Below are positions 20,104 to 49,994 of a DNA stretch of 49,994 nucleotides, piece by piece. The stretch spans positions 1 through 49,994 of the forward strand of contig JBAXAF010000006.1 of assembly GCA_037142675.1 (NCBI GenBank), read 5' to 3'. Both the position numbers and the translations under genes were made by a program. The notes under the pieces were generated by a model. That model was not told the DNA's origin and ran no database searches. It worked only from the letters and a program-made list of their open reading frames with translations. This DNA is from Candidatus Berkelbacteria bacterium. GTDB lineage: Bacteria > Patescibacteriota > UBA1384 > XYA2-FULL-43-10 > CAINNR01. Numbering within the stretch: position 1 is the first letter of the stretch; every line of letters begins with the position of its first letter.

Positions 20104-20145
20104 GTACCAATTTTAACATATTCTAGTACCAAACAAAAGCCGAAT

Positions 20146-20195
20146 AAAAAACCCGCTTCCTCTTAACACCACGGTGTTAGTGCAAGGATGCGGGG
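20146..20195 (-). terminator. Terminator of cassette A
   Basis: CCCGC...GCGGG stem followed by TTTTTTATT on the - strand. Confidence 0.65.
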
Positions 20196-20214
20196 TGGTT
20201 CTGTTTCCGACTGG

Positions 20215-20511
20215 CTAGGTGGCCCCAAGTGGCTTGGGTACCGGGTTATGCCGCTCAGCGACCATTGAAGCCAGTTCTGTACCTAGGGCTGCGCGTGATG
20301 CGGCCTGCCATTGGGATTCGTCAATCGGGTAGCCACGGAGATTGGCGATCATTCCGGTTGAGTTCATCTCAACGGCCAGCACCATCGGGAGCATGCCGCA
20401 TGGTAGCAGTAGGTTCTGTTTGGCGCCGAGTTTGATGGCTTCTCCCACTGCTGCGGGATCTTCACTCCGAATAGCGTGTTCCAGCTTCTGCTGCAATTGT
20501 CGCCGTGTCAT
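20215..20511 (-). CDS. Small ankyrin-repeat-like protein (GC-rich cassette A)
   Basis: Start reassigned to ATG 20511 after AGGAGG. 'LEHAIRSEDPAAVGEAIKLGAKQN...GMLPMVLAVEMNSTGMIANL' follows ankyrin spacing. Confidence 0.55.
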   Translation of the reverse strand: MTRRQLQQKLEHAIRSEDPAAVGEAIKLGAKQNLLLPCGMLPMVLAVEMNSTGMIANLRGYPIDESQWQAASRAALGTELASMVAERHNPVPKPLGAT

Positions 20512-20596
20512 AGCGCGCCTCCTAACGGCTTTGCCAGGCTGCGATTGCTCTCTCTGCCCAATTGCGGAAACTCGCTGAGGTCTGGGTAACCGCCGA

Positions 20597-20839
20597 CTAT
20601 GAGGAGTCGGCTCCAACCATCTGGCCCTCGTTGATTGATGGGGCAATGTCGAGCAGCAGACGTGCAGCATCCAGCATGAAATCCTCTGACGTGATTACCA
20701 GACAGCCCCGCTCATATACGAGCAGGTAGATCTTCTTCCCGCGAATCGAAATAAGCAGTGGGCAGCCACGGACTTCGTTGCCGAACCAAGTGGCAGTTAG
20801 CTCTGGCCCGACTTCCTCGCAGGGAGGGATTGGTATCAT
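20597..20839 (-). CDS. Hypothetical protein (GC-rich cassette A)
   Basis: 80 aa, RBS GAAAGGA, downstream of promoter 20884-20913. Confidence 0.6.
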   Translation of the reverse strand: MIPIPPCEEVGPELTATWFGNEVRGCPLLISIRGKKIYLLVYERGCLVITSEDFMLDAARLLLDIAPSINEGQMVGADSS

Positions 20840-20883
20840 GGTCCGATCCTTTCGATGGTAACTGCGGAGTGATCGTCAAGTTT

Positions 20884-20913
20884 TTTATAACACAAAATAA
20901 GCTCAAATGTCAA
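20884..20913 (-). promoter_or_regulatory. sigma70 promoter of cassette A
   Basis: TTGACA-18-TATAAA with extended TG. Confidence 0.7.
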
Positions 20914-20935
20914 TGAATTTGAGCAAAATAATTTA

Positions 20936-20985
20936 AGATCCTGAATCAAGCCCACGGGGTCACCTACGGAAGATTCAGGATGACA
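20936..20985. repeat. REP/RPE-like palindromic repeat (half unit)
   Basis: AGATCCTGAATC...GATTCAGGATGACA, matching the right half of 32331..32384. Confidence 0.75.
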
Positions 20986-20993
20986 AAAGACGA

Positions 20994-23888
20994 TTATATT
21001 GCTTCGGCACAAATGTCGCGGTATGGGCAATATTTACATTGGAACATGTCTGGCTTGGCAGAGAGCTCTTTGTTTCGAATCCCCTGCTCAACGTCAGCTA
21101 TCATTTTTTTAGTATTTTCTAAATCGTTCTGGGAAAAAATTCTCTCACCCTTGAGCCCCGACTCAATAAAATGTAGGGTTGTTTTTGGTATTGTGCCATA
21201 TTTACTTTCCCAGGCTAGAGCATAAATCATCATTTGAGTTGAGTCTTTGATCCGTCTTTCAGCATCCTTTTGCTGGCGAACATCGGAGGTTTTAAAGTCT
21301 CTAATTTCTGCTAGTTCTCCACTTCGATAAACCAGATCAAATCGCCCATTTATTTTTACGTCACCTATTAGGAATTCAAATACTTCCTCAACTTTACTAG
21401 GCAGGGTTGAGTCTTTTTGATCTTCATCAAAGAAGCGAGACAAAGTATCAAGTCCCTGTTTAAATCGCAGTTCCTCTTGCTCTCTGGTAATAAAGCCAAC
21501 ATTATGAAAAGCTTGACGATAATCGGCCAGAAGTTGATTTAGCGTTAATTTTTCGCCCGCAATTTTTCTAGCAAAATAATGATCAAGCGCGGCATGGATT
21601 GCTGTACCGTACATTAATTGTTGATTCTCCAAAAGAGGAATTTTTATAATGTGGGCGTAATAAAATTTCTTTGGACATGAATAATAATCATCAATTTGTT
21701 GACGTGAAAGTTTCAGGACCTTATCGGAAAATTTATTTGGCAGGCCCTTTATTTCTTGTGGCAGTTGTTTGAATCTTTCGATTTTTTCAATAGCAGAAAG
21801 CTTGTGTTTTAGTTTTTCCGGTTTGGGTTGATCAAGAAGTTCAAGCGCAAATTGTGATATTTTCTTTGCTCGTTTGCCGCCGTAGTCCTCGGCCGCTGTT
21901 AAATATAAATAGTTTTTCGCCCTAGTTGCGGCAACATAAAAAAGTCGCCGCTCTTCTTCTAAGTGCCAGTCCCCTTCTGGCAGTCTTTCTTTGATTAGCT
22001 CCTCGGAAATTGGTAGTGGATCACGTCTTTTCCTGGACGGAAATCTGTCGGCTACACAGTTGGCGATAAAAACTACTGGCCACTCCAAACCTTTAGAGGC
22101 GTGAACGGTTAAAATATTTACAGCGTCAATGTCCGGGTCGATATCCGAAGAAACAATTTCGTCGCCGACGGAAATAATCAGCTCCAGGTTTTGCAAAAAT
22201 GCTAATACTCCCCGCTCTGAACTTGCGTGATTAAAAGAGGAAATTCGATCAAAAAATTTGGCAATATTAACAATTTTTGCTTCATCTAAGGCTGACGGAT
22301 TGCTGCTAAGCTTCTTTAGATATTTTTTTTCGGTTAGAAAATTATACAGCAGTTCACCGATTGGTTGATTAATGAGTTCGCGGTATTTTTCGATGTCGCG
22401 AATCATCTCTGACAAATTTTCAAAATCCTCAGTTTTCTCGGAGGTCTCCTTGATAACATCAAGAATACTGCGATTCTCTCTTTTGGACTTAGTGTAGTGT
22501 TCTGACAAAGTGCTGTGGGCGACGTTATAAATTTCCGATGTTGCCAGTTGGTGGAGTGCTAAATTGTCATCGGAATATACAATTGATTTCAAAAAAGCGA
22601 TTAGCATTTTTATTTCTGGCTGGGAGTAAAGTCCCGAGGCGCCAGAAAAAATTGACGGAATTCCGGCAACGTTTAGAGATTGAATAAAAGGTTCAGAGTG
22701 AATATTGGCGCGAACTAAAATGGCGAAATCATTATTTTTAAGCCCTTGTTTTTTTAAATCCTGAATTTTTTCAACAACGCTATCTGCTTCGCATGAGAGT
22801 GTGTCACAAAATATTAGTTCGGGCGCCAGACCATGTTTTTTGCTGGTTAGTTTTTTATTGATACCGTTTTTAACTTCCAGCCGATCCGGGTTATTATTTT
22901 GTATGAGCTTGTATGAAGCATCAAGGATTTCTTTTGTCGACCGGTAATTTTCCGTTAGAACAATTTCAGCAACATTTTTATAATACTTTTTAAAGTCCAA
23001 TATATTTGAAATTGCCGCGCCGCGGAAACGATAAATTGATTGATCGTCATCGCCGACCACGGTAATGTTGCCATCTTTGCCCGACAAAAGTTTGATTAGC
23101 TCATTTTGTGCAAAATTCGTATCTTGGAACTCATCTACTAGAATATATTGAAACTTTTCATGGCATTCAAAAAGTACCCTGGGGTTTTCTTTTATCAGTT
23201 TGTAGGTTAAATAAATTTGATCGCCAAAATCCAGGTTTCCCGACTGTATCATCAGCTCCTGGTACCTTGAATAGGCATTGGCGAGTTCTAGAGTTTTTTC
23301 AGCCTCAAGTTTCTCATCGGAGCTATTAGCTTTTAGCTGTAAGCTGTCAGCAAAATTCAAATAATCCTCAGGAGAAATTAATTCATCTTTTAGTCGCGAG
23401 AAATGAGTTAGAAGTTCTTGAAGATGAGAAAGCGGATCAGCAATTGGCCGAAAATGCTTAAGGTCGAAAGCGTAAATATTTTGGCGCATAAAAATTGCTT
23501 GTTCTATTGCGGTCAGCACCTTAAAATTTGCCGGCAAACCCAAATTGATGGCATAGTCGCGCAAAAATCTATCGCCAAAGGCGTGAAAAGTTGAGATCCA
23601 CATATCGGTGTAGCCATATGGCGTAAGCTCGTCAACGCGAACTTCCATTTCGGCAGCGGCTTTTTCTGTGAATGTTAGGGCCAATATTTCCGATGGTTTG
23701 GCCCATTTTTTTTCAATAATATGAGCAATCCGACGGGTAATAACAGCAGTTTTTCCTGTTCCGGCGCCGGCGATAATTAAGAGCGGTCCGGTTTTGTGAG
23801 TTACAGCCTTGTGTTGCGCAGTATTAAGCCCGGCCAAAACATCTGGTTTAGTATTTTCGAAATTTAGTTTAAGTGGTTTGGGTTGCAT
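20994..23888 (-). CDS. UvrD/PcrA-family SF1 helicase fused to C-terminal PD-(D/E)XK nuclease (AdnA/B / AddA-like)
   Basis: 'IAGAGTGKT', 'LVDEFQDTN', 'GDDDQSIYRFRGA', 'EERRLFYVAATRA'; C-terminal 'GRFD...IRDFKTS' with Cys set CPKK...CKYCPYRDIC. Start taken as ATG 23888. Confidence 0.92.
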   Translation of the reverse strand: MQPKPLKLNFENTKPDVLAGLNTAQHKAVTHKTGPLLIIAGAGTGKTAVITRRIAHIIEKKWAKPSEILALTFTEKAAAEMEVRVDELTPYGYTDMWISTFHAFGDRFLRDYAINLGLPANFKVLTAIEQAIFMRQNIYAFDLKHFRPIADPLSHLQELLTHFSRLKDELISPEDYLNFADSLQLKANSSDEKLEAEKTLELANAYSRYQELMIQSGNLDFGDQIYLTYKLIKENPRVLFECHEKFQYILVDEFQDTNFAQNELIKLLSGKDGNITVVGDDDQSIYRFRGAAISNILDFKKYYKNVAEIVLTENYRSTKEILDASYKLIQNNNPDRLEVKNGINKKLTSKKHGLAPELIFCDTLSCEADSVVEKIQDLKKQGLKNNDFAILVRANIHSEPFIQSLNVAGIPSIFSGASGLYSQPEIKMLIAFLKSIVYSDDNLALHQLATSEIYNVAHSTLSEHYTKSKRENRSILDVIKETSEKTEDFENLSEMIRDIEKYRELINQPIGELLYNFLTEKKYLKKLSSNPSALDEAKIVNIAKFFDRISSFNHASSERGVLAFLQNLELIISVGDEIVSSDIDPDIDAVNILTVHASKGLEWPVVFIANCVADRFPSRKRRDPLPISEELIKERLPEGDWHLEEERRLFYVAATRAKNYLYLTAAEDYGGKRAKKISQFALELLDQPKPEKLKHKLSAIEKIERFKQLPQEIKGLPNKFSDKVLKLSRQQIDDYYSCPKKFYYAHIIKIPLLENQQLMYGTAIHAALDHYFARKIAGEKLTLNQLLADYRQAFHNVGFITREQEELRFKQGLDTLSRFFDEDQKDSTLPSKVEEVFEFLIGDVKINGRFDLVYRSGELAEIRDFKTSDVRQQKDAERRIKDSTQMMIYALAWESKYGTIPKTTLHFIESGLKGERIFSQNDLENTKKMIADVEQGIRNKELSAKPDMFQCKYCPYRDICAEAI

Positions 23889-23924
23889 TGTTCCCAAAGT
23901 ATAGCGCAAAAGTGTTTTTTAAAC

Positions 23925-23966
23925 AAAAAAAGCCCCGAACCGCGTGAAGCACGTTGCGGTTCGGGA
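23925..23966 (-). terminator. Terminator of cassette B
   Basis: CCCGAACCGC...GCGGTTCGGG stem plus T-tract on the - strand. Confidence 0.8.
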
Positions 23967-23974
23967 CAGGTTCA

Positions 23975-24217
23975 TCATTCTGGCATCCGCGGATAAAGCG
24001 GAGCCCGGGCAGGGCGCCGTTGGCGACCTTTGTTCGAAAGATGATAGTGCCCATCGTTCCACAGTCTCGCATAGTGTAGGCCTGCCATCATGATGACGGC
24101 GAAGACCAGCGCTGCGATGAAACGAGTAGCGTCATCCTCCTCCCCAGCGAAGAAGATAGCGAATCCGAATCCTCCGCCGAGGAACAGTACTGCCAAGAAG
24201 CCGTAAAGCTTTGTCAT
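23975..24217 (-). CDS. Small 2-TM membrane protein (GC-rich cassette B)
   Basis: 80 aa, RBS AAAGGA, two hydrophobic helices and a basic tail. Confidence 0.65.
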   Translation of the reverse strand: MTKLYGFLAVLFLGGGFGFAIFFAGEEDDATRFIAALVFAVIMMAGLHYARLWNDGHYHLSNKGRQRRPARAPLYPRMPE

Positions 24218-24276
24218 CTTGAGCCACGTCCTTTGCTATGATGTATTCTGTGAGCGTTGCTACGTTGGACATGCGA

Positions 24277-24531
24277 CTATCTGGGTTTGGATCTCATTAT
24301 CGCTCTGGCCAGCCTTCGTCTCGGGCAGAACCAGCGCGACAGGAAGAAAACAATGCCTCCTAAGCAGAGTAATAGACCTACTGTCTTGAGGCTAACAATG
24401 GCTTCGGTGAAGTTACTGTCAGCTAGCGGCACTGTTAATGTGACTATCGCAAGACCAACAAAGATCCAGGACAGCCATTTTAGCAGATTGCTAAGCTGAA
24501 GCAGACTGGCCAGAGGTGATGTTGATGTCAC
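24277..24531 (-). CDS. Small 2-TM membrane protein (cassette B)
   Basis: GTG 24531 after GAAAGGAG preferred over ATG 24594; two TMs and an Arg-rich tail. Confidence 0.55.
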   Translation of the reverse strand: MTSTSPLASLLQLSNLLKWLSWIFVGLAIVTLTVPLADSNFTEAIVSLKTVGLLLCLGGIVFFLSRWFCPRRRLARAIMRSKPR

Positions 24532-24649
24532 CCAACCACTCCTTTCATGCCCCTGAAAGAGAAAACCCTGAAGCGAACTCCAGGGATTCCTCATTTAAAG
24601 GGCTTTGACTCTAAGGGCAATTTTTAATACCCTCATCGTCAACTTCTCC

Positions 24650-24678
24650 ATTGTAGCACATAAGTTTGTTGTTGTCAA
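24650..24678 (-). promoter_or_regulatory. sigma70 promoter of cassette B
   Basis: TTGACA-17-TACAAT with extended TG. Confidence 0.75.
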
Positions 24679-24689: not shown

Positions 24690-24751
24690 TGTCATTCCCG
24701 CGAAGGCGGGAATCTACTAATAGTGGATCCCCAACTAAATTGGGGATGACA
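24690..24751. repeat. REP/RPE/dRS3-like doublet palindrome
   Basis: TGTCATTCCCGCGAAGGCGGGAATC...GGATCCCCAACTAAATTGGGGATGACA; 62 bp, same length as 35007..35068. Confidence 0.85.
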
Positions 24752-24764
24752 GGATGAGTAGCAG

Positions 24765-30087: not shown

Positions 30088-30093
30088 AAAATC

Positions 30094-30219
30094 AAATCCT
30101 AAATTCTAATATCTAAACTCTAAACAATTTTCAAAATACAAATGCTATATTGTTCAAAATATTTGGAAATTTGATCACTTGAGTTTGTCTATAATTTAGA
30201 GTTTAGGATTTAGTATTTA
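30094..30219. repeat. AT-rich heptamer-periodic inverted-repeat element
   Basis: AAATCCT-AAATTCT-AATATCT-AAACTCT-AAACAAT ... AATTTAG-AGTTTAG-GATTTAG-TATTT. Confidence 0.75.
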
Positions 30220-30313: not shown

Positions 30314-30476
30314 AACAAAAAACACCACCTTGGCAGTGGAAAATTAGCTTTAGTTCTACAATTTGTGTGTTCCAGAGTAGCTAGATGGTAGATGTGGTAT
30401 GCAATAAAAAAAGAGACCACCTCGTAGGCATGGAAGCCTTTGAATTGGTGATCTCTCGGTCATGGGTGCGGTGACA

Positions 30477-30911
30477 TCAGTCGGCGTGTGGCACGTTGCC
30501 AGGCGCCAAGTGAAACTCCAGGACGTATCGCAGGCAGTAGCCGCTAGAAGGCGATGTTTTGCCATCCTTTACCCAGCTGGCTTCTTCTGGATAAGGCGCC
30601 CGTATTAGCATGTAATCCTCGTCGGAATCGACATCATGGTAGATGACATGCCTTGAGACATTGTATTGACCTCGGACACGGTTCGGCGTGCAGCCATACA
30701 CGCTGCGGTTGACCTCGCCTCCGTCTCCCTCTCTGACGTAGACGAATGACGGTTCGCCGCCATCCAGGTACAGCATGGTTATTGGGATCCGGATTGGCAG
30801 GCGAGCAAAATCTGCCCTGGTTGCCTTGATCTCGGATCGCCTAATTGCGATAGCCGCGATGGCAATTGCCACCACGAGCAGAAACAAAATCCCGTATAGT
30901 GCGCTGTTCAT
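30477..30911 (-). CDS. N-terminally anchored hypothetical protein (GC-rich cassette C)
   Basis: Start at ATG 30911 after GAGAGGAAG; own promoter 30953-30981 and terminator ~30405-30456. Confidence 0.7.
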   Translation of the reverse strand: MNSALYGILFLLVVAIAIAAIAIRRSEIKATRADFARLPIRIPITMLYLDGGEPSFVYVREGDGGEVNRSVYGCTPNRVRGQYNVSRHVIYHDVDSDEDYMLIRAPYPEEASWVKDGKTSPSSGYCLRYVLEFHLAPGNVPHAD

Positions 30912-30952
30912 GGGTAATCTTCCTCTCAATGGGTGCGGTGAATACATCGAAT

Positions 30953-31012
30953 ATTATATCAGGCTAACAGTTTTATGTCAAATAACCAGCCGCCTCCAAA
31001 TAAAAAACCGTC
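30953..31012 (-). repeat. Cassette junction repeat 1 (terminator end plus TTGACA-17-TATAAT promoter)
   Basis: ATTATATC-N15-TGTCAA-N11-CCTCCAAATAAAAAACCGTC; same length and ends as 31728..31787. Confidence 0.8.
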
Positions 31013-31040
31013 TGCGACGCGATGCGTTGCAGACGGTCGA

Positions 31041-31151
31041 CTATGGGTGAACTGGCAAATGGCCGGAACCGCCGGTTGCTATTAGCAGAGCTACCCCTGC
31101 GGCGATGCAGACGGCCAGAAACCACATCCATGCTTCAACATACCAAGGCAT
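31041..31151 (-). CDS. 36-aa single-TM small protein (cassette D; below ORF-track cutoff)
   Basis: AGGAG-N7-ATG; MPWYVEAWMWFLAVCIAAGVALLIATGGSGHLPVHP*; ends at the terminator. Confidence 0.6.
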   Translation of the reverse strand: MPWYVEAWMWFLAVCIAAGVALLIATGGSGHLPVHP

Positions 31152-31211
31152 TTTGTCACTCCTGCCTATTCTTGATGATTGTGTCTTGGCCAGACAGCTT
31201 GTTGCGTTGTC

Positions 31212-31685
31212 TCATCTGGGCATCTCAATTTCAGGTGGGCCCAGCATTACTGTGCCTCTCCCCCTGAAAACCCTCGACGGGATCAGCAGGTTATCGGTCA
31301 CGGTCACATCGCTGTCGGGTGTGAACAACCTGACGGATATATCCGTATCAGGCTCTGGCGAACCCGGAATGGCATTCTCTTTGATGGATCTGACTCGGTA
31401 GCCCTCGACCACGTTTGTGACACGCAGAAAGGTATCCACATAGCAGTGTCTAGTCTCAGGCACTGCGTCGATAGCATAGAGAGTCAGAGTGACGTGACCA
31501 TTCCGAGTCGTTCCGCGCCAGATCTCGTCGCCTTTTGTGATCCATGGCTTGGCCTTCTCTGGTGCGACTTGAGCTGAAGCAGTCTTGGGCATGTGTAGCG
31601 AAACCCACTTCTGCTGGTTGTTCGCAGCGATCAGTCCCAAGATGACGACGAAAGCGATCAGAACGACGAGTGATCTAGTGCTCAT
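31212..31685 (-). CDS. Exported/membrane-anchored beta-rich hypothetical protein (cassette D)
   Basis: Start ATG 31685 after GGAGGAGG; N-terminal TM. Confidence 0.7.
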   Translation of the reverse strand: MSTRSLVVLIAFVVILGLIAANNQQKWVSLHMPKTASAQVAPEKAKPWITKGDEIWRGTTRNGHVTLTLYAIDAVPETRHCYVDTFLRVTNVVEGYRVRSIKENAIPGSPEPDTDISVRLFTPDSDVTVTDNLLIPSRVFRGRGTVMLGPPEIEMPR

Positions 31686-31727
31686 CTCTGCTGCCTCCTC
31701 CATTGGCGGTACGGTGATTGTGCTGAG

Positions 31728-31787
31728 ATTATATCAATTAGTAATTGTTTTGTCAATCAAAAAATCACCTCCAAATAAAAAACCGTC
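31728..31787 (-). repeat. Cassette junction repeat 2 (terminator end plus promoter)
   Basis: ATTATATC-N15-TGTCAA-N11-CCTCCAAATAAAAAACCGTC. Confidence 0.8.
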
Positions 31788-31820
31788 GCGCTGAGTTGCG
31801 GACGGGTGTGTCGGCTTGGC

Positions 31821-32225
31821 CTAGAAGCCTGTTGAAGACGATGGGGTGCGGCGGTCTACCATGGACACCTTGTCGGTGAAGGCGGCGTTGGCCAGCACCA
31901 GCCAGGAGTGTCGTGTCCGATAGCACGGAGGTAGGAGCGGCGCGAATGCGTCCATGATCTTCTGGTTGCGCTTGTCCTTGTCGGCCGTCCTTGACGGGAA
32001 GTCCATGGCTTCGATGCGCAGTTCTGCATCGTAGCGCATGATGTCCAGCGGGCCGGGAGTCTCGACCTTGACCTCGATGTCGGTCTGGATGAGCTGCCCG
32101 TTTGGATCATCGCAGTTGAGGCATTCGGCGATGATTGCCGGCAGGGCCTGGACCGCCGACTGAAGTACGCTGTAATCACTGGCGTCGGTTGGAAGGAATC
32201 GCACTTTCAGGTTGGCATGGGGCAT
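31821..32225 (-). CDS. Tautomerase/MIF/CHMI-superfamily-like protein (cassette E)
   Basis: Begins Met-Pro-His, apparent tandem beta-alpha-beta layout, RBS GAGAGG. Confidence 0.55.
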   Translation of the reverse strand: MPHANLKVRFLPTDASDYSVLQSAVQALPAIIAECLNCDDPNGQLIQTDIEVKVETPGPLDIMRYDAELRIEAMDFPSRTADKDKRNQKIMDAFAPLLPPCYRTRHSWLVLANAAFTDKVSMVDRRTPSSSTGF

Positions 32226-32263
32226 GGAATTAGCCTCTCTCTCGTGAATTCAGATGCGGTGAA

Positions 32264-32329
32264 ATTATATCGAAATATTCATTGTTTGTCAATACAAAAA
32301 TCACCCGCGTTTCCTTGGGTGATTTTTTT
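32264..32329 (-). promoter_or_regulatory. Cassette E promoter (junction repeat 3) and upstream ftsZ terminator
   Basis: TTGACA-17-TATAAT (32264-32292) and hairpin AAAAATCACCC...GGGTGATTTTT. Confidence 0.8.
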
Positions 32330-32330
32330 C

Positions 32331-32384
32331 TGTCATTCCGGGCTTGATCCGGAATCTAGATCCTGAAACAAGTTCAGGATGACA
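32331..32384. repeat. REP/RPE-like doublet palindrome
   Basis: TGTCATTCCGGGCTTGATCCGGAATC-TAGATCCTGAAACAAGTTCAGGATGACA. Confidence 0.85.
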
Positions 32385-32392
32385 ATGGAATA

Positions 32393-36317: not shown

Positions 36318-36333
36318 ATTTTCCTTTCAATCA

Positions 36334-36457
36334 AAGTTCTAAGCTCTAAGTTCTAAATCCTAAACAAATTCTAATTTTCAAATTTTCCAATATGTTAGAT
36401 ATTTGGTCATTTGGATTTTGATATCGTTTAGAAATTAGATATTTGAAATTAGGATTT
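36334..36457. repeat. AT-rich heptamer-periodic inverted-repeat element
   Basis: AAGTTCT-AAGCTCT-AAGTTCT-AAATCCT-AAACAAA ... TTTAGAAATTAGATATTTGAAATTAGGATTT. Confidence 0.75.
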
Positions 36458-36464
36458 GGTTGTC

Positions 36465-36659: not shown

Positions 36660-36761
36660 GTGTAATCACCTACTCTCGAAGATATTTATCGGAATTAGCT
36701 CCGAAATCTGTATTCACTATACCGCAAAGCTTGTTATTTAGCAAGCTGTAGCAGCACCTTG

Positions 36762-36790
36762 TTGACATAATCGATAAAATATGATAATAT
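36762..36790 (+). promoter_or_regulatory. sigma70 promoter of cassette F
   Basis: TTGACA-17-TAATAT with extended TG. Confidence 0.65.
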
Positions 36791-36833
36791 GTTAACACAA
36801 GTTGATACACAGACAATACCAGGAGATCGTGCC

Positions 36834-37235
36834 ATGAGAAAACTTCCCGTGCTTCAGCCCCACCACATCCTCAACTTCTTGGACTTCTGGCCGGCGCGCA
36901 TTAGAGCATTGCAACTGGCCAATGTGGATCCCTAAGTGGTCCGCGTCTTGACCAACATGACCAAATCGTACTGCCTGGGCTATGAAGATGGGCGTATCCG
37001 CCCGGGCAGACTGGGCCAGTGGGACGTTTATCGCAACGCCCATAACTGGGGTTTGACCGAGGATCAGTGCATCTTGATCTCCGGTCTCCCCGCCGATGAG
37101 GTCGGCACCGAGAGCGAGAAGGCCAAGATCATCCTCACGGGGTTCGATCCCGACGACAATGACCAGGTCGAGGCCTACAGGTATATGACCTCCATGACCC
37201 TGGCCGAGGCTTACCGTAGGCTTGCGGAGGAGTAG
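36834..37235 (+). pseudogene. GC-rich orphan gene (cassette F) interrupted by one in-frame TAA at 36933-36935
   Basis: AGGAG then ATG 36834 (MRKLPVLQPHHILNF...) is in frame with ORF 36936..37235 across a single stop. Terminator at ~37266-37303. Confidence 0.6.
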
Positions 37236-37299
37236 AAACAAGCTGAGACGTTATCAGCAGCAGCCGATCGGCAATTGTGGCAACATAATTGCCGATTTT

Positions 37300-37776
37300 T
37301 TATTTCCATACAATTTTATATCTAATTTTAGGTTTACGAGTCGAAGGAAAGTTTTGATCTAAATACTTCTGCCAGTTTTCTTTCATCCACTTTTGCTCTT
37401 TACGTTCTAGATCCCCTATCCCGCGAAGTAGAAATTCACGCCGAATGACATTACCCTTGTGGGGGCTTTTGTGTTGTTGTGGCAGCGGAGAATTAAAACC
37501 ATGAGCATAGTGTGCCATTTCGTGGACAATCACCGCATCAATTACATACTCCGGGATTGCTTCATCCTTGAATAATCCGTTAATAACAATAATAGTTTTA
37601 AAGTCTTTTTTGAATCGATCGGCCAATGTTTTTGGTCGCTCTCTTTTGATACATCCGAGCTGGCGACGGCTTCTGCGACCCCAATTGATCTCGATTTGAT
37701 TCGGCGCTTCCAAATCAGCAAAATAAGTGCGGTAAATATGTTCGAACCTGTTTTCCAACCAAGTAATTGATCTCAT
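37300..37776 (-). CDS. SprT/YgjP-like zinc metalloprotease
   Basis: 'VIVHEMAHY.HG' HExxH plus 'PHKG'. Confidence 0.8.
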   Translation of the reverse strand: MRSITWLENRFEHIYRTYFADLEAPNQIEINWGRRSRRQLGCIKRERPKTLADRFKKDFKTIIVINGLFKDEAIPEYVIDAVIVHEMAHYAHGFNSPLPQQHKSPHKGNVIRREFLLRGIGDLERKEQKWMKENWQKYLDQNFPSTRKPKIRYKIVWK

Positions 37777-37806: not shown

Positions 37807-37835
37807 TCGACAAAACAAGCTCAACATGATATAAA
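37807..37835 (+). promoter_or_regulatory. sigma70 promoter of cassette G
   Basis: TCGACA-17-TATAAA with extended TG. Confidence 0.65.
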
Positions 37836-37918
37836 TAACTCATCCGAAAGGAATATCCCTAAGAAGCTGGGGAGAAACCAATCAGTGCTTCTCCGCCCTA
37901 GGCGGATCATCTGTACGG

Positions 37919-38719
37919 ATGGTGAGAATGATGAACAAGGTACATGGTTATGGCAGGCTGGATTATCTTGCGGCAGCCCACGATGGTCTCCCCTTCTACT
38001 ACGCCCCGGCGTCAGGAGACCAAGTGGTTTGTGCCCAGATGGTGCTCAAGCACTTGCCGCCGCCGCTCCTTCTCCACGTTTCCACTCTTAGTCGGGAAGA
38101 CTTGACGATAGAACGTGACGGTGGGGGCTACCGTATTGTCGAAGTTTCGCAGAAGTACAATGGCTGTCTGGCGAGAGAAGTTCCGGCTGCTGAGATGAGA
38201 ATTCCCGCTGAGTTTCGGTTCGCTTTGTGGGAGATGCTGAATTTGTACAAGGAACTCGGGTCCATTAGCTATCGCTATCTCGGCGATCGCCGTGAAATCC
38301 GACTGTTCCTGTCTGGCGCGAGCAGCGAGGCGATGATCGCCGAGCCGTGCAACTTTGCCCGGGTTTTCGCTGATAAGCTGGGCGCGGCAATATACAACAA
38401 CCCAGTAAGTCGTATTTTCACCGAGGTTTTTCTGCTGGCTGTGAGGCATTTGGGGTATCCGCCCGGTTCGCAGTATCACAGCAAGTTCGATCAGGTGATG
38501 CAGAACGAATCGCCTGCCAGTTATCGCTTCGATACGTTCACATCCTTGCCAGGGCTCAAATTTTGCCACGAGCCAGGCAAGTTCTGGTTCGATTGCCCTG
38601 CTGAATACCTCTCGGGCACGCGAGCAGATAAGTTCGCTGCTGCCAACGAGAAGTTGCCGCCTCTCGTCCAGGCATACGAAGGAATGAGGTGGATCATCGA
38701 TGGCAAAGTCAAGGACTGA
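37919..38719 (+). CDS. GC-rich hypothetical protein (cassette G), possibly frameshifted at both ends (intact gene ~37885..38834)
   Basis: 266 aa ORF. The RBS GGGGAG fits GTG 37885 in another frame, and an open shifted frame continues to TAG 38834. Confidence 0.6.
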   Translation: MVRMMNKVHGYGRLDYLAAAHDGLPFYYAPASGDQVVCAQMVLKHLPPPLLLHVSTLSREDLTIERDGGGYRIVEVSQKYNGCLAREVPAAEMRIPAEFRFALWEMLNLYKELGSISYRYLGDRREIRLFLSGASSEAMIAEPCNFARVFADKLGAAIYNNPVSRIFTEVFLLAVRHLGYPPGSQYHSKFDQVMQNESPASYRFDTFTSLPGLKFCHEPGKFWFDCPAEYLSGTRADKFAAANEKLPPLVQAYEGMRWIIDGKVKD

Positions 38720-38847
38720 GCAGAAGATGCGGCGAATCGCTTGCTCAGTCTGGAAGGATGAGCGACTCGCTGCGATGATCATCAAGATCAATCAGCAGAC
38801 CGCAAAGCGGCTGAAGTCTGGCCGTCTAACATAGGGAGGCAGAACCA

Positions 38848-38994
38848 ATGTCGCAGCGTAAGCGTCGCGCGCCCGACGGCAAGAGGCACTATCGGAAGAG
38901 TAAGTCGGCAACCACCGTCAAAAAGCCATTGCCCTGGTTGGGGCTGACGGTGGTTGGTCTGGCCGTTGCCCTTCTGGTCATATTGGGCCGATAA
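38848..38994 (+). CDS. 48-aa basic single-TM small protein (cassette G; below cutoff)
   Basis: AGGGAGG-N8-ATG; MSQRKRRAPDGKRHYRKSKSATTVKKPLPWLGLTVVGLAVALLVILGR*; terminator at 39015-39050. Confidence 0.65.
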   Translation: MSQRKRRAPDGKRHYRKSKSATTVKKPLPWLGLTVVGLAVALLVILGR

Positions 38995-39062
38995 TCGGCT
39001 GTGGTCAAAAGAACACCGCCCGTCCTTCACCGGATTGGCGGCTTTTTTATTCTAAATACGTC

Positions 39063-39091
39063 TTGACATACGTGCTTAATTGTGCTAGAAT
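39063..39091 (+). promoter_or_regulatory. sigma70 promoter of cassette H
   Basis: TTGACA-17-TAGAAT with extended TG. Confidence 0.8.
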
Positions 39092-39142
39092 TACGCACGT
39101 ACTGATACACAGTCTGCCCCCATTGGGGAGAGGATGATATAG

Positions 39143-39907
39143 ATGTGCCGCAGTAAGAGCCGCAAGAGCAAACAAGCCCAACCAGTTCAGCAGTTCAACC
39201 TACGTTGGATCTGGATAGTGCCGGTGCTGCTGTTGGGACTGGCTGTTATAGTGCTCAGCCGCCCGCATCGCCAACCAGTGGTTGTCCCTGCTTCAACTCC
39301 TGTTCAGGCTTCGCCTGAGGTTCAGGCTCCCTGGGACATGTCCAACGGGTTGACCGAATCTCAGCTGGCAAAACTACGGGAAAAGATCGGTGCTGTGCTG
39401 ATCGTCGGGACTGGTGATCCAGTGCTTGAGATCAGCCATCTGACTACCTGGCTCAAGTCGCAATTGGACTCCGGCAAGGCTGCAATGTCAGTGGTGCCCT
39501 TGGCCACTGGTGAAACTGTAGCCTTTACACAGATGACAGGGACGCCAAAGCTCCCGACAATCATCTTCGCTGGTCCGGTTTTGTGGCAACGAATGATGGA
39601 GCTTGCTCCTGACGACTTCAGCAATAACATACTGGAGTCTATCTGTCACGAGGCGCTTCACTTGCGGTTGACGCCTGCAACTTTGGGCGAATCACGCACC
39701 GATGCCAGCCACCGCCGGTATGTGGCCGGTGAGGCCAAGGTCTGGGCCTATCAGATCCCGAAGATTGTGCGTCCAATGATGAAAGCCGGACGGATGACCG
39801 ACATCGTCTCGCAGAAGGCGGAAACGGGCTTTGCGGCCGTTGGCAACAAGAACAACGCTGATTGGTACAAGTGGGTTGAGGCCAACCTCTGTGTCAAGTC
39901 TCAGTGA
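39143..39907 (+). CDS. Membrane-anchored HExxH zincin-like protein (cassette H)
   Basis: Basic N-terminus plus TM; 'ESICHEALH...GEAKVW'; RBS GGAGAGG; terminator at 39914-39953. Confidence 0.7.
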   Translation: MCRSKSRKSKQAQPVQQFNLRWIWIVPVLLLGLAVIVLSRPHRQPVVVPASTPVQASPEVQAPWDMSNGLTESQLAKLREKIGAVLIVGTGDPVLEISHLTTWLKSQLDSGKAAMSVVPLATGETVAFTQMTGTPKLPTIIFAGPVLWQRMMELAPDDFSNNILESICHEALHLRLTPATLGESRTDASHRRYVAGEAKVWAYQIPKIVRPMMKAGRMTDIVSQKAETGFAAVGNKNNADWYKWVEANLCVKSQ

Positions 39908-39981
39908 ATACAAGTGGGTGTTTGGCGGAGTTCGCCAGGCACCCACATTTTTATATAAATTTAGACAACGTGCTTGGGGTA

Positions 39982-40010
39982 TTGACAATATTTAAATCAT
40001 ATGCTATACT
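39982..40010 (+). promoter_or_regulatory. sigma70 promoter of the lytic transglycosylase gene
   Basis: TTGACA-17-TATACT with extended TG. Confidence 0.8.
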
Positions 40011-40016
40011 GGAGAA

Positions 40017-40240
40017 GTTGCTTTCGAAAGGGGGCGACGTTTTTAGTTCAAATTGGGCTCGTTTAGTCGATGAGCACAAAATGAGCTTATATTAATAACA
40101 ATTTCTGTGCGCAAGTAGTACCACTTCGGTGGCACGCATGCCCCTCGGAGCACAAGCTCAGTGGGGTTCGAACGCCAGAATAATGTACATGACCCTTCAA
40201 TCCTTCGACCGGCTCAGGACCGGCTTTGGCAAGGGGCGTG
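40017..40240 (+). promoter_or_regulatory. Long structured 5' leader (candidate cis-regulatory RNA)
   Basis: GAAA-capped stem 40017-40038, UUCG-capped stem 40121-40132, CATGCCCCT pairing with the SD-containing AGGGGCGTG. Confidence 0.45.
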
Positions 40241-46166: not shown

Positions 46167-46168
46167 AA

Positions 46169-47074: not shown

Positions 47075-47082
47075 TTTTCTCC

Positions 47083-47484: not shown

Positions 47485-47729
47485 AGTTGAATGTGAACAA
47501 TTAAAAATAAACCAAGAATTTCCAGAAGTCGACCAATACTCTTCAGTGCAGGCCAAGCAGCTGGAATAAAAAATAGTACCAAAACAACCCAGATGAAGTT
47601 GCCCTTGATAAAGCGCCAAAGGGACCAAACTAAAATAATTAAAATTACCAGAGAAATTAAACTGGAGTATCCGGGTGATAAGCCCATGATTACTTTGTCG
47701 TAATAGGCAAATATTTTGCTTAGATCCAT
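47481..47729 (-). CDS. Small membrane protein
   Basis: 82 aa, highly hydrophobic, coupled to the DUF296 gene. Confidence 0.7.
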   Translation of the reverse strand: MDLSKIFAYYDKVIMGLSPGYSSLISLVILIILVWSLWRFIKGNFIWVVLVLFFIPAAWPALKSIGRLLEILGLFLIVHIQL

Positions 47730-47741
47730 AGTGTTTTTTTC

Positions 47742-48497
47742 TTAAAGTTTGCCGACAACAACGACGATGTCATAGGCTGAGCCAACAACGGAAGTATTTT
47801 TTGAGACTTCAGTTTGCCGATCAGGCAAAGCGGCTTTAACCAGATTTGCTGCAGATGAATCATCGGTTTTGTAATAAATATAGGTTTTGCTGTAATTAAA
47901 TGATTTGGCGTTACCTGTGCCCTTAACGCTAAATCCGGCAGCTTTAAGCGTGTTGGCAACAGTAGTAGCAGAATTTTTTACTCCAGATCCATTTAAAACG
48001 GAAATTGCGATAGTTGATTTATCGACTGTTGGCACAGCAGTTACTGTTGGCGTCGCTGTGACTGCTGGGGTGCTGCTGGCCCCAGACTGACTGTTATAAT
48101 TTTTAGCTGAGTCAGTGGTAGTATTAATAATATCACTTAAGTTTTGACTGCTCTTCTTTTTGTATGAACCATCAACATAACTTTTTATTGTGGCATAATT
48201 TTGCCAGACAACTAAACCTATTAAGGTGCAAACTGCTAAGGCTATAATAGTCGGATAAACCCAACGATGTTTTTTAGTTTTGCTGTTTTTTGGGTCTCTT
48301 ATAGCTCGCTTATTGCCAACGCTGTTGCCGTTACTCATGGGAGTATTAGCAAAAAAATCACCTTCGTGTGACTCCTGAAATAAATTGCCCTCGTCTTTTT
48401 CTTCTATCTTTTTTCTGGCAACTTTAATCTCGGCCTGAACGACTTTTTTAGAGATTGGCCTGTAAGTTTTTGGACGAATATCATCTGAAATACCCAA
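47742..48497 (-). CDS. LytR C-terminal domain-containing membrane protein
   Basis: TM plus 'ISVLNGSGVKNSA...L...GF...TGNA...DIVVVVGK'; TTG start after AGGAGGGG. Confidence 0.88.
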   Translation of the reverse strand: MGISDDIRPKTYRPISKKVVQAEIKVARKKIEEKDEGNLFQESHEGDFFANTPMSNGNSVGNKRAIRDPKNSKTKKHRWVYPTIIALAVCTLIGLVVWQNYATIKSYVDGSYKKKSSQNLSDIINTTTDSAKNYNSQSGASSTPAVTATPTVTAVPTVDKSTIAISVLNGSGVKNSATTVANTLKAAGFSVKGTGNAKSFNYSKTYIYYKTDDSSAANLVKAALPDRQTEVSKNTSVVGSAYDIVVVVGKL

Positions 48498-48641
48498 ATC
48501 CCCTCCTGACTACACGGACGAAATACATCACTGAAAATAAAGATAGGCCAGCAATAATATTGTAGCAAATTTTAGCAACTCGAACAATTTGATGACTTTT
48601 GATTTCCGTGTTGTGTCCGTGTGCAAAATCTGTGCAGTTAT

Positions 48642-48872
48642 TTACCAGCGGGATTTTTTCATCGTTACAGTTTTAAGCGGCTTTTTGGCTAATTTTTTCT
48701 CTATCTTAGCTGCATGGGCCTTTTTAATCAAAATCTCACCCTTCTTTTCGTCAACAACCATTTGGACGACGTCACCTTTGTTCCACTTTAGTTCCCTGGT
48801 AACTGATTTAGGTAATGTAACGCATAAGCTGTAGTTAGAAAACTTAATCAATTTTCTGTTTTCTGATTCCAT
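48642..48872 (-). CDS. AbrB/MazE/SpoVT-family DNA-binding protein
   Basis: 'RKLIKFSNYSLCVTLPKSVTRELKWNKGDVV'. Confidence 0.88.
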   Translation of the reverse strand: MESENRKLIKFSNYSLCVTLPKSVTRELKWNKGDVVQMVVDEKKGEILIKKAHAAKIEKKLAKKPLKTVTMKKSRW

Positions 48873-48948
48873 AGTTCGCCCTCCAATAAAAATATACTAA
48901 TTGTTACTAGTATATATTGCGTGTCAACTTTTTTCAATTAGGAGCGAT

Positions 48949-49560
48949 TTACTGGTGGAATTTTCGAATTACACCCTTAACTTTTCCTTGAATTGTGACC
49001 CTGCCTTTGGCAAAACGCATTGGTCTCATGGTTTTATTGGCTGGCTGCAAACGAATACCGCTTGGCTCGTTGTAATAGCGTTTAAGAGTGGCGTTTTCAT
49101 TGTCGATTAGGGCAACAACTATTTCTCCATTTCGTGGGTTTTGTGATTGCTCAATAATTACATAATCACCATCGAGTATGCCGTCGTCTATCATTGATTC
49201 GCCGCGGACGCGCAGGGCGAACGTTCGGCGCCCCATCATGTCTTTAGGGATATCTATTGTTTCGTTTGTGCGAATGGCTTCAATTGGCTTGCCGGCATCG
49301 ATGACTCCCGAGAGGGGTATTTCGAAAGTGTCGATGCCGGATGCGAACGCCGGTGTCAGCTGGATTGAACGAGCCTCCATCGCCTCTTTGGTCAGATAGC
49401 CTTTCTCTTCTAATATAGAAATGTACTCGGCCACTGTGGAGACCGATGAAAGCTCAAAATAATATGCAATTTCTCTAAAGCTTGGTGCATAACCGTTTTC
49501 CGTAATGAAATTGCGGATAAAGTCGAGAATCTCTTTTTGTCTTTTGGTTAAACTCTCCAT
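48949..49560 (-). CDS. lexA: SOS repressor LexA
   Basis: 'LTKRQKEILDFI', AG cleavage site 'IDAGKP', catalytic 'GESM' and 'ATLKR'. Start MESL (49560) after AAGGA. Confidence 0.97.
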   Translation of the reverse strand: MESLTKRQKEILDFIRNFITENGYAPSFREIAYYFELSSVSTVAEYISILEEKGYLTKEAMEARSIQLTPAFASGIDTFEIPLSGVIDAGKPIEAIRTNETIDIPKDMMGRRTFALRVRGESMIDDGILDGDYVIIEQSQNPRNGEIVVALIDNENATLKRYYNEPSGIRLQPANKTMRPMRFAKGRVTIQGKVKGVIRKFHQ

Positions 49561-49594
49561 ATTTTCCTTATTCCAAAAACCCGCCATTGAATGG

Positions 49595-49667
49595 TTCGGT
49601 TTTTATTCTATTAATGTTTGGTTTGTGTTCGGTATTCATGTATACAGTATACCAAACACAACCCGAA
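49595..49667. promoter_or_regulatory. LexA operator array (TTCGG-N6-TTCGG-type direct repeats)
   Basis: + strand: TTCGG/TTCTA/TTTGG/TTCGG at 49595/49606/49617/49628 (11-bp period). - strand: TTCGG-N6-TTTGG at 49667-49652. Confidence 0.75.
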
Positions 49668-49737
49668 CACTGTCAAGAATATTTTAAAAAATATATCTGC
49701 ACTAGTAGAAGATAATTTAGGCATAAAAAAAGCAGCG

Positions 49738-49878
49738 CTACCGTAGTAGAGCTGCAAGGCCAAGGTGTTGGTGGTCAGGGAGCGGTGCTGGTGACAACAG
49801 CCAGATAACGGCCACTGTTGTCAGGATCAGTCCGCAAACCGACAAAACTAACAAGAATCTGTATTTGCGTGTGGACAT
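49738..49878 (-). CDS. 46-aa single-TM small protein (GC-rich cassette I; below cutoff)
   Basis: GGAGGTGG RBS; MSTRKYRFLLVLSVCGLILTTVAVIWLLSPAPLPDHQHLGLAALLR*; promoter TTGACT-17-TATAAT (49903-49931); terminator at ~49724-49755. Confidence 0.65.
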   Translation of the reverse strand: MSTRKYRFLLVLSVCGLILTTVAVIWLLSPAPLPDHQHLGLAALLR

Positions 49879-49994
49879 ATGCCACCTCCATTTACTATTA
49901 ACATTATATCATACATATTAAAAAAAGTCAATAGCAGTGTGGTGAATTCTACTCCGAAATGCAACTTTTAATGAAAACCTCGTGTGGCGTTAGA

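Follow-up and report, generated by a model that had tools for sequence, protein, structure and literature searches.

GC-rich promoter-to-terminator cassettes in fixed slots of a Candidatus Berkelbacteria chromosome: a flexible gene pool probably exchanged by homologous recombination

How does a tiny, streamlined chromosome organise its variable genes, and does a deviant base composition identify such genes as recent arrivals? The question is raised by a stretch of 49,994 nucleotides from a Candidatus Berkelbacteria bacterium (GenBank assembly GCA_037142675.1, contig JBAXAF010000006.1), called the window in the following and forming contig C6 of the studied genome (G000; 989 kb in 37 contigs, 42% guanine plus cytosine (GC), completeness 100%, contamination 1.15%). 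Nine short GC-rich blocks lie in it among AT-rich genes. An initial annotation described these blocks as self-contained, moron-like mobile units from a common donor pool that diversify the cell surface. The analysis presented here indicates that they are probably a local sample of a genome-wide flexible pool of cassettes of one to three genes, which occupy fixed slots and are swapped by homologous recombination. The comparison covered two regions (about 40 kb) against three congeners (G001, G002 and G003, with G002 as the sister genome at a completeness of only 72%) and one contig of a metagenome (L065), which comes from a congener of more distant relationship. Logan contigs of three sequencing runs (X1, X3 and X5, of which X3 is independent) were also used; the runs that hold the window are labelled lake-water metagenomes.

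The nine blocks are real, and the boundaries that the initial annotation gave for them lie no more than about 20-30 bases from the promoters and terminators located here. With open reading frames (ORFs) called by a greedy longest-ORF heuristic, the 14 cassette ORFs have a GC content of 0.494-0.600 (median 0.554; third codon position, GC3, 0.52-0.81), compared with 0.365-0.462 (median 0.402; GC3 at most 0.465) for the 29 host ORFs of the window, so that the two distributions show zero overlap (Mann-Whitney U=406 of 406, p=7.7e-8). The surroundings, from 14 to 48.5 kb, consist of ordinary core genes, including SecDF, RmuC, a UvrD/PD-(D/E)XK helicase, thioredoxin, class II ribonucleotide reductase, NrdR, FtsZ, FtsA, YbeY, S21, enolase, LexA and an SLT transglycosylase. 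Of 26 host ORFs in the window, 25 had Pfam matches at E <= 1e-5, while none of the 12 tested cassette ORFs reached the Pfam cut-off and none matched PHROGs, in agreement with the orphan status that had been claimed for them. Two sub-threshold Pfam rows, MscS_TM (16.3 bits) and TM_ErbB1 (13.3 bits), were dismissed as noise from transmembrane segments. A tRNA search of the window found none, and an Rfam scan of the whole window gave no match at the gathering threshold.

The expression signals are equally distinctive. A promoter of the form TTGACA-N17/18-TATAAT with 0-2 mismatches is present at all nine cassettes, and a hairpin abutting a U-run marks the 3' end of each (fold z <= -2.8 in six of nine), with U5-7 followed by AU at eight of the nine tails; the sigma-70 promoters and the TTTTT(T)AT terminators of the initial annotation are thus borne out. 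Between 20.1 and 40.1 kb, where 63 promoter-like sites were found (32 +/- 4.5 in shuffled sequences), cassette promoters account for five of the top six, three of them matching at 12/12 positions. The strong Shine-Dalgarno motifs are a partial result, being clear by eye for about nine of the 14 ORFs and not for the remainder. The units measure 0.2-1.3 kb and the blocks at most 2.2 kb, and the one or two ORFs expected per block were found apart from one cassette (c5a) that holds three. Membrane-anchored products, said to form the majority, are not a distinguishing property: a Kyte-Doolittle test was positive for 8/14 cassette ORFs and 11/29 host ORFs, and genome-wide the fractions are 0.26 for GC-rich and 0.29 for host ORFs, on which grounds an enrichment was rejected. 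End repeats or att-like words in common were not found among the cassettes, and the promoter spacers differ. The sole likeness between cassette ends is that of the terminator modules (80% alike) and promoter modules (83% alike) within island 3, which comprises c3a, c3b and c3c (island 4 is c4, and island 5 is c5a and c5b); here c3b is flanked on both sides by near-identical terminator tails, ACGGTTTTTTATTTGGAGG. Neither an integrase nor a structural gene of a phage is present among the window ORFs, and Pfam scans revealed no recombinase among them, a dedicated search for tyrosine-recombinase families not having been made.

The compositional class extends over the whole genome. The distribution of ORF GC (ORFs of at least 60 aa) has two modes, one near 0.41 and one near 0.55; 172 of 1031 ORFs have a GC content >=0.49, and 201-nt windows at or above this value cover 13.5% of the genome bases. 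The GC-rich mode is tight (0.54-0.56), with more Arg, Ala and Pro and less Lys, Ile and Asn in the proteins. That most of these ORFs are real genes is shown by GC at the three codon positions (GC1 0.58, GC2 0.45, GC3 0.61) and by in-frame protein conservation in relatives. Among ORFs with an upstream gap of at least 80 nt, a promoter with <=2 mismatches precedes 43.5% of the GC-rich ones (n=115), against 14.6% of host ORFs (n=343) and 6.7% in shuffles (n=300), and 27 of the 72 promoters with <=1 mismatch in the genome face GC-rich DNA. Terminators follow 59/172 GC-rich and 79/859 host ORFs, and T5+AT tails occur at 31 of these 59 and eight of these 79. Only 7/172 GC-rich ORFs have any paralogue, and therefore the class is a set of singletons; a paralogue or repeat family among the cassettes was rejected on this count and on the lack of a common end word. 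Pfam matches at E <= 1e-5 were obtained for 17 of the 150 GC-rich ORFs scanned, among them PlsX, a PlsY fusion, a FabI-like reductase, NDK, a major facilitator superfamily (MFS) transporter, a second DnaA (33% identical to the host-type DnaA), a ParA-like protein, radical-SAM/SPASM proteins, ankyrin repeats and an Lcl_C protein. PlsX is 96% identical in the sister genome, so hypervariability is not universal among GC-rich genes.

In DNA searches against the three congeners the flanks are conserved and the slots variable: islands 3 and 5 are absent from G001 and G003, and at island 4 there is a mere 38-bp gap in G003, a different insert of 1.1 kb in G001 and contig breaks in G002. In the sister genome, whose contigs break at islands 1 and 4, the DNA in the slots is likewise GC-rich (0.53-0.58) but hardly resembles that of the studied genome at the nucleotide level. 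At the protein level, host proteins of the same loci (n=14) are 88.8-99.75% identical between the two (median 98.4), whereas of 13 cassette queries seven matched at 31-59%, two over short pieces only and four not at all. The seven are syntenic homologues (c1a 36%, c1b 31%, c2b 42%, c3a 45%, c3c 50%, c5a 41%, c5a3 59%); the short pieces, at 84-88% identity, cover 17 residues of c2a (its leader, beyond which c2a is likewise absent) and 19 of c3b2, and no match was found for c3b, c4, c5a2 and c5b in the protein search of this genome. c5b, which was not found in any of the three congeners, occurs at the same site after SprT in L065 (66%) and in a further relative, L066 (47%), and c3b has a homologue at the same site in G001 (33% identical, GC 0.43). 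L065 is fully syntenic, with core proteins 84-96% identical and GC-rich alleles of c3a (74%, GC 0.60) and c5b (GC 0.56) in the same slots. In the second region (19 kb, contig C4), 4/11 GC-rich ORFs are detectable in the sister genome at 53-84%, among them the MFS transporter (60%) and the FabI-like reductase (53%), and 8/11 host ORFs at 80-97%.

At the five slots compared among the three congeners and L065, the genes on either side are conserved and the content differs, and the presence of homologous cassettes at the same slots argues for exchange in place, not transposition. Mobility as the initial annotation understood it is not upheld: few GC-rich ORFs have a paralogue, a common end repeat is lacking, and homologues occupy the same slots in relatives. 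The presence or absence among relatives, which it had proposed to check, was found to vary, here and in the C4 region. It had also held that synteny of the ORFs as core genes in relatives would speak against it; they are syntenic, but hypervariable or missing rather than core.

The differences between alleles bear the marks of replacement. At four-fold degenerate sites, c3a, c3c and c5a differ between the studied and the sister genome at a proportion of 0.62-0.79, which is saturated, compared with 0.13-0.34 (Jukes-Cantor (JC) distance 0.14-0.46) in seven flanking core genes. The cassette alleles trace back to a much older common ancestor than do the genomes in which they lie. Since these sites are silent, protein selection cannot account for the divergence, which indicates replacement rather than fast evolution in place. 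The gene c3a is moreover discordant: the allele of the studied genome is 74% identical to that of L065 but 45% to that of its sister, and the alleles of the sister and L065 are also 45% identical. The seven c3a proteins known fall into two classes relative to the studied genome (100/81/74/71% and 45/44/42%), and one C4 cassette is likewise discordant (76% to G003, 63% to G002). In c3c and c2b, identity to the sister genome drops from about 93% to unalignable no farther than about 50 nt from the 3' ends; in c3c the last ~50 nt of the ORF and the 3' untranslated region (UTR) are ~93% identical, marking a breakpoint. Promoters, 5'UTRs and junctions are 82-99% identical between the two genomes (c5a 5'UTR 82%). 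Terminators, too, keep an identity close to that of the core, and it is the bodies of the ORFs that are replaced. In the sister genome the promoter of c3b drives the c3a homologue (c3a') and c3b is missing, and one contig of run X5 joins position 31766 to 31002, across c3b. Coverage in X5 is absent over 37999-39999 and little over 30662-31995 and 36665-37331, with the core covered, and only this c3b-spanning join was used. In the independent run X3, c3c and c5a are covered with 0 differences, which speaks against ongoing diversification.

In the mechanism that would probably account for these observations, each cassette would occupy a fixed intergenic slot between core genes and be transcribed from its own sigma-70 promoter to its own intrinsic terminator, and whole ORFs would be gained, lost and swapped through homologous recombination, with the conserved genes on either side, and the expression signals that are likewise conserved, acting as homology arms. 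The most likely source would be DNA taken up from related cells. The cassettes would not be moved by a recombinase of their own, and the diversity of their products might plausibly be maintained by pressure from hosts, phages or neighbours. Uptake followed by homologous recombination is the simplest route; the studied genome encodes ComEC (163 bits) and DprA (264 bits), and passages of PMC10633639 and of its preprint describe natural competence in Saccharibacteria. These facts, and a type IV secretion-like cluster at the window start, do not prove the route. As a class, the cassettes would be a variant of recombination-exchanged flexible islets.

It should be noted that several points weigh against this account. 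Recombination was deduced by comparing sequences from a limited sample of genomes. In the comparison of the studied genome with L065, c3a and c5b have diverged at silent sites (JC 0.82 and 0.98) to the same degree as the core (0.40-2.15, median ~0.97), so that both may have descended vertically there and replacement may be rare, not constant. ComEC and DprA also occur in 10/14 control genomes. Some GC-rich ORFs were called on the wrong strand (e.g. 36792-37241), and such greedy calls blur the class statistics. Recombination with relatives also leaves the GC-richness of the pool, including its GC content at four-fold sites (GC4) of 0.61-0.68, unaccounted for.

Base composition has to be considered in its own right. 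Between the cassettes of the studied genome and L065, strong/weak differences are found at 62 of 136 four-fold sites (0.456, compared with 0.469 at full randomisation) and are balanced in direction (29 vs 33). GC4 is nevertheless 0.61 and 0.64 in the cassettes of the two, compared with 0.41 and 0.35 in seven core genes, and it is 0.68 in both of the deeply split alleles of the studied and sister genomes. Such a near-complete turnover of silent sites with GC4 still high implies that the high GC is stationary and not the fading signal of an import. Nor is it dictated by the proteins, since some homologues have a GC content like that of the host genes (c3b in G001; c5b in G005, GC about 0.40). 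A donor or reservoir of GC-rich alleles, such as the initial annotation had postulated, was not found. To judge from the alignments, a GC content of ~55% in a 40% GC chromosome looks stationary and would be a stable property of the cassette pool. It is conceivable, although we propose it only tentatively, that one 1-Mb chromosome maintains two stable base-composition equilibria at single-gene resolution, with cassettes held at ~55-60% GC and the core at ~40%. The force holding the cassettes would be directional and tied to their copying or exchange; candidates are GC-biased repair of imported DNA, retroelement-linked copying, which would rest on four reverse transcriptases whose known targets are genes of the GC-rich class, and selection on transcripts.

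A more familiar explanation, in line with the donor pool of the initial annotation, would be that the cassettes are recent horizontal acquisitions from one higher-GC donor lineage, be it a host bacterium or some other organism, whose composition they retain because amelioration has not yet set in. It would suit the tight composition, the amino-acid shift and the patchy distribution, the cellular genes in the class (PlsX, the PlsY fusion, the FabI-like reductase, NDK, the MFS transporter and the second DnaA), the AT-rich homologues in G001 and G005, which amelioration predicts, and the share of horizontally acquired DNA in Patescibacteria, put at up to 13% in passages of PMC12455944, where transfers are said to take place mostly among Patescibacteria themselves. 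It is nevertheless unlikely, given that silent sites have been almost fully randomised without loss of their high GC, that relatives use the same slots, and that no abundant donor is apparent: in collections of 1.8-5.8 billion proteins the cassette families number 3-7 members each, which belong to this lineage wherever the context is readable. PlsX, present in 10/44 genomes of the order, likewise exceeds its flanks in GC content in several genera besides this one (e.g. 0.56 vs 0.44 and 0.58 vs 0.41). A trivial cause, in which foreign GC-rich pieces were stitched in during assembly or binning, draws on the edges of island 3, which are dispersed repeats where Logan contigs break (30108-30128, 32358-32384). 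This is extremely improbable, because single Logan contigs of run X1 bridge core and cassettes (from ftsZ through island 4 to SprT, and from SprT through c5a, c5b and SLT onward), G002 and L065 independently hold homologous GC-rich genes at the same slots, and the promoters, like the terminators, lie in register with host genes.

The word moron invites a third explanation, namely that the lineage's phages left morons or prophage remnants in the chromosome. In the passages of PMC3594210 a moron is an independent transcription unit of deviant composition added between phage genes, and in this descriptive sense the initial annotation was right that the units are moron-like, self-contained, accessory and compositionally alike. 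A phage-like contig of 55% GC (L069) also encodes a 172-aa protein with the ExxCHEALH region of c5b (hhalign 92%, 43 columns). A phage origin is all the same quite improbable: the cassette ORFs are without PHROGs matches, the flanks are core cellular genes, the window lacks an integrase or phage structural gene, and no other protein of the studied genome matches the phage-like contigs. The search for phage homologues that had been suggested yielded no usable relatives in the viral contig collection: two family alignments and two large GC-rich proteins matched nothing usable, and a third large protein found only a near-identical record. The cassette of this protein lies on contig C18, which is ordinary chromosome (15/19 host-class ORFs with Pfam E <= 1e-4). 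The phage-like contigs L067 and L069 were rejected as donors, only the 43-column motif region being common with c5b. Marginally less probable again is local GC-biased hypermutation, whether retroelement-driven in the manner of a diversity-generating retroelement (DGR) or transcription-coupled, that would diversify ORFs in place. ORF bodies are indeed hyper-diverged, including silent sites, next to conserved DNA, and reverse transcriptases occur at four loci with DGR repeat pairs whose targets have a GC content of 0.48-0.62. However, no template-like repeat for the window cassettes exists in the assembly, where a search of this type did turn up four pairs at other loci, divergence spans whole ORFs and not a variable region of ~130 nt, cassettes are identical in an independent sample, and transcribed 5'UTRs are conserved at 82-87%; that c3a is nearer to a distant relative than to the sister is impossible by mutation in place.

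Exchange of cassettes in fixed slots has partial parallels. Replacement-type flexible genomic islands of free-living aquatic bacteria are usually multi-gene, several kb or more in size, often of lower GC and often envelope-related. They resemble the cassettes in the divergent or non-homologous content of one locus in close relatives and in the gaps in metagenome mapping, but the present units are single-gene (0.25-1.3 kb), of higher GC and spread over the whole genome. Minimal mobile elements consist of different whole genes between the same flanking genes, carry no mobility genes, and their exchange is attributed to transformation and homologous recombination. Those of Neisseria share with the cassettes a content that differs between common flanks and a unit without transposase, integrase or terminal repeats; here, in contrast, conserved consensus expression signals seemingly serve as junctions, allele identity within a family is 31-59%, and deviant GC persists. 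Recombination-driven variation of gene content in naturally transformable Neisseria is treated in PMC3787668, as far as its passages go. Phage morons likewise have their own promoter and terminator, one to a few genes, deviant composition, patchy presence and mostly unknown function; the cassettes differ in lying between core cellular genes (RmuC, UvrD-type helicase, thioredoxin, NrdR, FtsZ, S21, SprT-like, SLT), in numbering ~100 units per 1-Mb genome, in having homologous alleles in one slot across species, and in that no phage relatives were found. Like integron cassettes they are small, mostly single-ORF, orphan and variable, with tandem arrays in islands 3 and 5, but they have their own promoters and terminators and many slots, not a single array beside an integrase, and an attC-like common repeat was not found among them. 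DGR variable proteins in the same genome are also accessory, diversified members of the GC-rich class, whereas the window cassettes lack a template repeat, vary along the entire ORF and do not change from one sample to another. A classical genomic island would be a large block with an integrase, next to a tRNA gene, unlike these units. The genomic islands of Patescibacteria in PMC12455944 make up a similar share (up to 13% vs 13.5% here), but its passages do not describe single-gene promoter-to-terminator units, conserved slots, the replacement of alleles or a GC offset that is stable, and GC-rich promoter-to-terminator cassettes in Candidate Phyla Radiation (CPR) chromosomes are not described in the abstracts and passages of the literature consulted.

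The coordinates of the cassettes and of the other features discussed are collected in Table 1.

Table 1. Cassettes of the window and further features of the studied genome. Positions refer to the window unless another contig is named; z, fold z-score of the terminator; TM, transmembrane segment.
Feature	Position	Strand	Details
c1	20146..20913	-	promoter 20884-20913 (TTGACA-N18-TATAAA); hairpin 20152-20194, T-run 20146-20151
c1a ORF	20597-20839	-	80 aa; GC 0.55
c1b ORF	20215-20511	-	98 aa; GC 0.58
c2	23924..24678	-	promoter 24650-24678 (TTGACA-N17-TACAAT); terminator 23924-23967, z=-4.19
c2a ORF	24277-24594	-	105 aa, doubtful
c2b ORF	23975-24217	-	80 aa, TM
c2 conserved leader	24548-24663	-	identity 92-99% in G001-G003
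c3a	31777..32292	-	perfect promoter 32264-32292; ORF 31821-32225 (134 aa); terminator 31777-31805
c3b	30999..31756	-	perfect promoter 31728-31756; terminator 30999-31037, z=-4.98
c3b ORF	31212-31685	-	157 aa, N-terminal TM
c3b2 ORF	31041-31151	-	36 aa, TM
c3c	30406..30981	-	perfect promoter 30953-30981; hairpin and T-run 30406-30449, weak (z=-1.6)
c3c ORF	30477-30911	-	144 aa, N-terminal TM
c4	36762..37304	+	promoter 36762-36790 (TTGACA-N17-TAATAT); terminator 37266-37304, z=-4.22
c4 short upstream ORF	from 36835	+	
c4 ORF	36936-37235	+	99 aa, GC3 0.81, without TM
c5a	37807..39048	+	promoter 37807-37835 (TCGACA-N17-TATAAA); hairpin and T-run 39016-39048, z=-1.58
c5a ORF	37919-38719	+	266 aa, soluble orphan
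c5a2 ORF	38700-38834	+	44 aa, doubtful
c5a3 ORF	38848-38994	+	48 aa, TM
c5b	39063..39953	+	promoter 39063-39091 (TTGACA-N17-TAGAAT); terminator 39914-39953, z=-6.4
c5b ORF	39143-39907	+	254 aa, N-terminal TM, invariant CHExLHLxxTP
c6	49724..49931	-	promoter 49903-49931 (TTGACT-N17-TATAAT); Shine-Dalgarno motif GGAGGTGG; terminator 49724-49755, z=-2.77
c6 ORF	49738-49878	-	46 aa, TM, GC 0.52
Type IV secretion-like cluster	140-13216		at window start
Two VirD4/TraG-type coupling ATPases	5603-8149, 10076-13216		in type IV secretion-like cluster
Sigma-70 region 4 and HARE-HTH protein	8866-9924		in type IV secretion-like cluster
Large orphans	532-4035 (1167 aa), 4041-5582		in type IV secretion-like cluster
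Contig-end word U1	49941-49994		also ends of C2, C29, C21, C12
Contig-end word U2	ends of C20, C25, C16		
Contig-end word U3	ends of C5, C22, C10, C14, C24		
Contig-end word U4	ends of C5, C4, C27, C17, C13		
Reverse-transcriptase loci	C13 22.1-26.4 kb, C2 40.7-43.8 kb, C23 3.1-6.8 kb, C2 1.0-2.7 kb		
Pfam-family genes of the GC-rich class	C8 4398-5507 (L072), C21 3981-5705, C4 19010-19885, 36839-38320, 32819-33595		PlsX, PlsY fusion, FabI-like reductase, second DnaA, ParA-like ATPase
GC-rich block with radical-SAM genes	C14 25.7-29.0 kb (L051)		3.3 kb
Split serine recombinase	C18 44-1561 (L106)		at contig end
Dispersed host-type repeats	30089-30219, 36330-36460, 32323-32390, 24690-24760, 20960-21000		two repeats

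The slot of c1 (terminator fold z=-3.15) lies between the UvrD/PD-(D/E)XK helicase and RmuC, that of c2 between thioredoxin and the helicase, and that of c4 between rpsU and the SprT-like gene. The ORF c2a is doubtful because its start falls inside a leader that is kept in relatives without c2a. The c2 promoter and ~90 nt of this leader are strongly conserved in the three congeners, compared with 74-78% for the flanking coding genes, and the first bases of the leader (GGAGAAGTTG) reappear in the leader of the SLT gene (39982-40128). In Rfam the leader gave only two chance-level rows at E <= 1; it could encode a small RNA or act as a regulatory leader.

For the products, a specific role in cell-surface diversification is not supported, as transmembrane segments are no commoner than in host proteins, c3a looks soluble, c5a is a soluble orphan, and c5b looks like a membrane peptidase. 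The c5b family has four known sequences with an N-terminal anchor, and CHExLHL is invariant in all four. There is no Pfam match for c5b; the core of its structure model (pLDDT >85 over much of residues 70-180) resembles minimal zincins, matching selecase with a probability of 0.92-0.97 (E 9e-3, TM-score 0.23/0.47) and 3e11 with a TMt of 0.57. From the model, c5b looks like a putative membrane-anchored zincin-like peptidase. The Met-Pro start of c3a is invariant in 3/3 sequences, and its structural neighbours in the atlas are CHMI/MIF/tautomerase proteins (TM-score 0.54-0.66, all below the acceptance bar). By sequence, c3a was rejected as a tautomerase, since its profile reached a best E of 0.5 against PDB sequences; Pfam gave no match. 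Its predicted structure looks like a soluble tautomerase fold, which is a lead only. Only two relatives of c5a were found among 1.84 billion representatives, and its moderate model (pLDDT 65) gave no fold match (TM-score <0.2; atlas empty). The remaining products are small transmembrane or soluble orphans.

Several further features of the genome deserve mention. Eighteen contig ends stop at four exact words of 50-55 nt. U1 covers the 3' terminus of a gene for an IS30-type transposase together with a short terminal repeat, and the word in the studied genome reads ...TPHEVFIKSCISE; a homologue of this transposase in G040 matches HTH_38 (39.7 bits) and rve (29.9 bits), and the transposase itself is absent from the bin. 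At 13/13 ends of U1-U3, a TTGACN hexamer resembling a -35 box stands at a fixed distance (5-9 nt) from where the repeat ends, and the next 400 nt have a GC content >= 0.51 at nine of these 13. At c6 the -35 box is 9 nt from the end of the unassembled IS30-type element, which adjoins the cassette yet lies outside it. The contig-end repeat has no match in the three congeners, and an exact-word scan of the viral contig collection found no relative of it. Such elements could insert, promoter- or palindrome-directed, next to cassettes.

Reverse transcriptases are found only on C2, C13 and C23. Their template/variable mismatches fall at template adenines (C13 15/15 and 16/16; C2 12/13; C23 13/14; C2 7/8), and the targets are GC-rich-class ORFs, including the Lcl_C-domain protein. 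The GC-rich block on C14, adjoining an insertion-sequence end, contains two radical-SAM proteins (one SPASM) and a CxxCxxCC protein, and looks like a peptide-modification cluster. The serine recombinase on C18 is split into two ORFs (Resolvase N-terminal domain and zinc-ribbon recombinase domain) and may explain the near-identical record in the viral collection. The contigs L067 and L069 are uniformly 54-55% GC and up to 89 kb long, and encode two phage-type DNA methyltransferases, a DUF7296/PHROG protein and otherwise co-directional orphans. Of the two dispersed host-type repeats, one is AT-rich and CTAAAnTCTAAA-rich with inverted symmetry, and the other is a palindrome on TGTCATCCTGAAC...GTTCAGGATGACA and relatives, with 12-mers occurring up to 26x in the genome; both lie at gene ends, also in the congeners, and independent assemblies break there. 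In the type IV secretion-like cluster, the 1167-aa orphan matched no family in a Pfam scan; it includes a stretch of GC 0.53-0.57 at 0.8-1.9 kb and is present in the sister genome at 87-88% DNA identity, and it was not found in G001 or G003.

The cassettes show how a tiny streamlined CPR genome, which nevertheless has to deal with hosts and phages, may organise its variable genes, namely as ~100 plug-in expression units without dedicated mobility genes. They also call for caution, as deviant GC is not proof of recent transfer and here persists through about one substitution per silent site; if the two base-composition equilibria proposed above were true, deviant GC would be the mark of a mode of inheritance and not of recent foreign origin. 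The slots, with their compact consensus promoters and terminators, are candidate landing sites and expression parts for tractable Patescibacteria, and the hypervariable products, comprising small membrane proteins, a zincin-like peptidase and a tautomerase-fold protein if the models hold, are candidates for interaction with hosts or phages.

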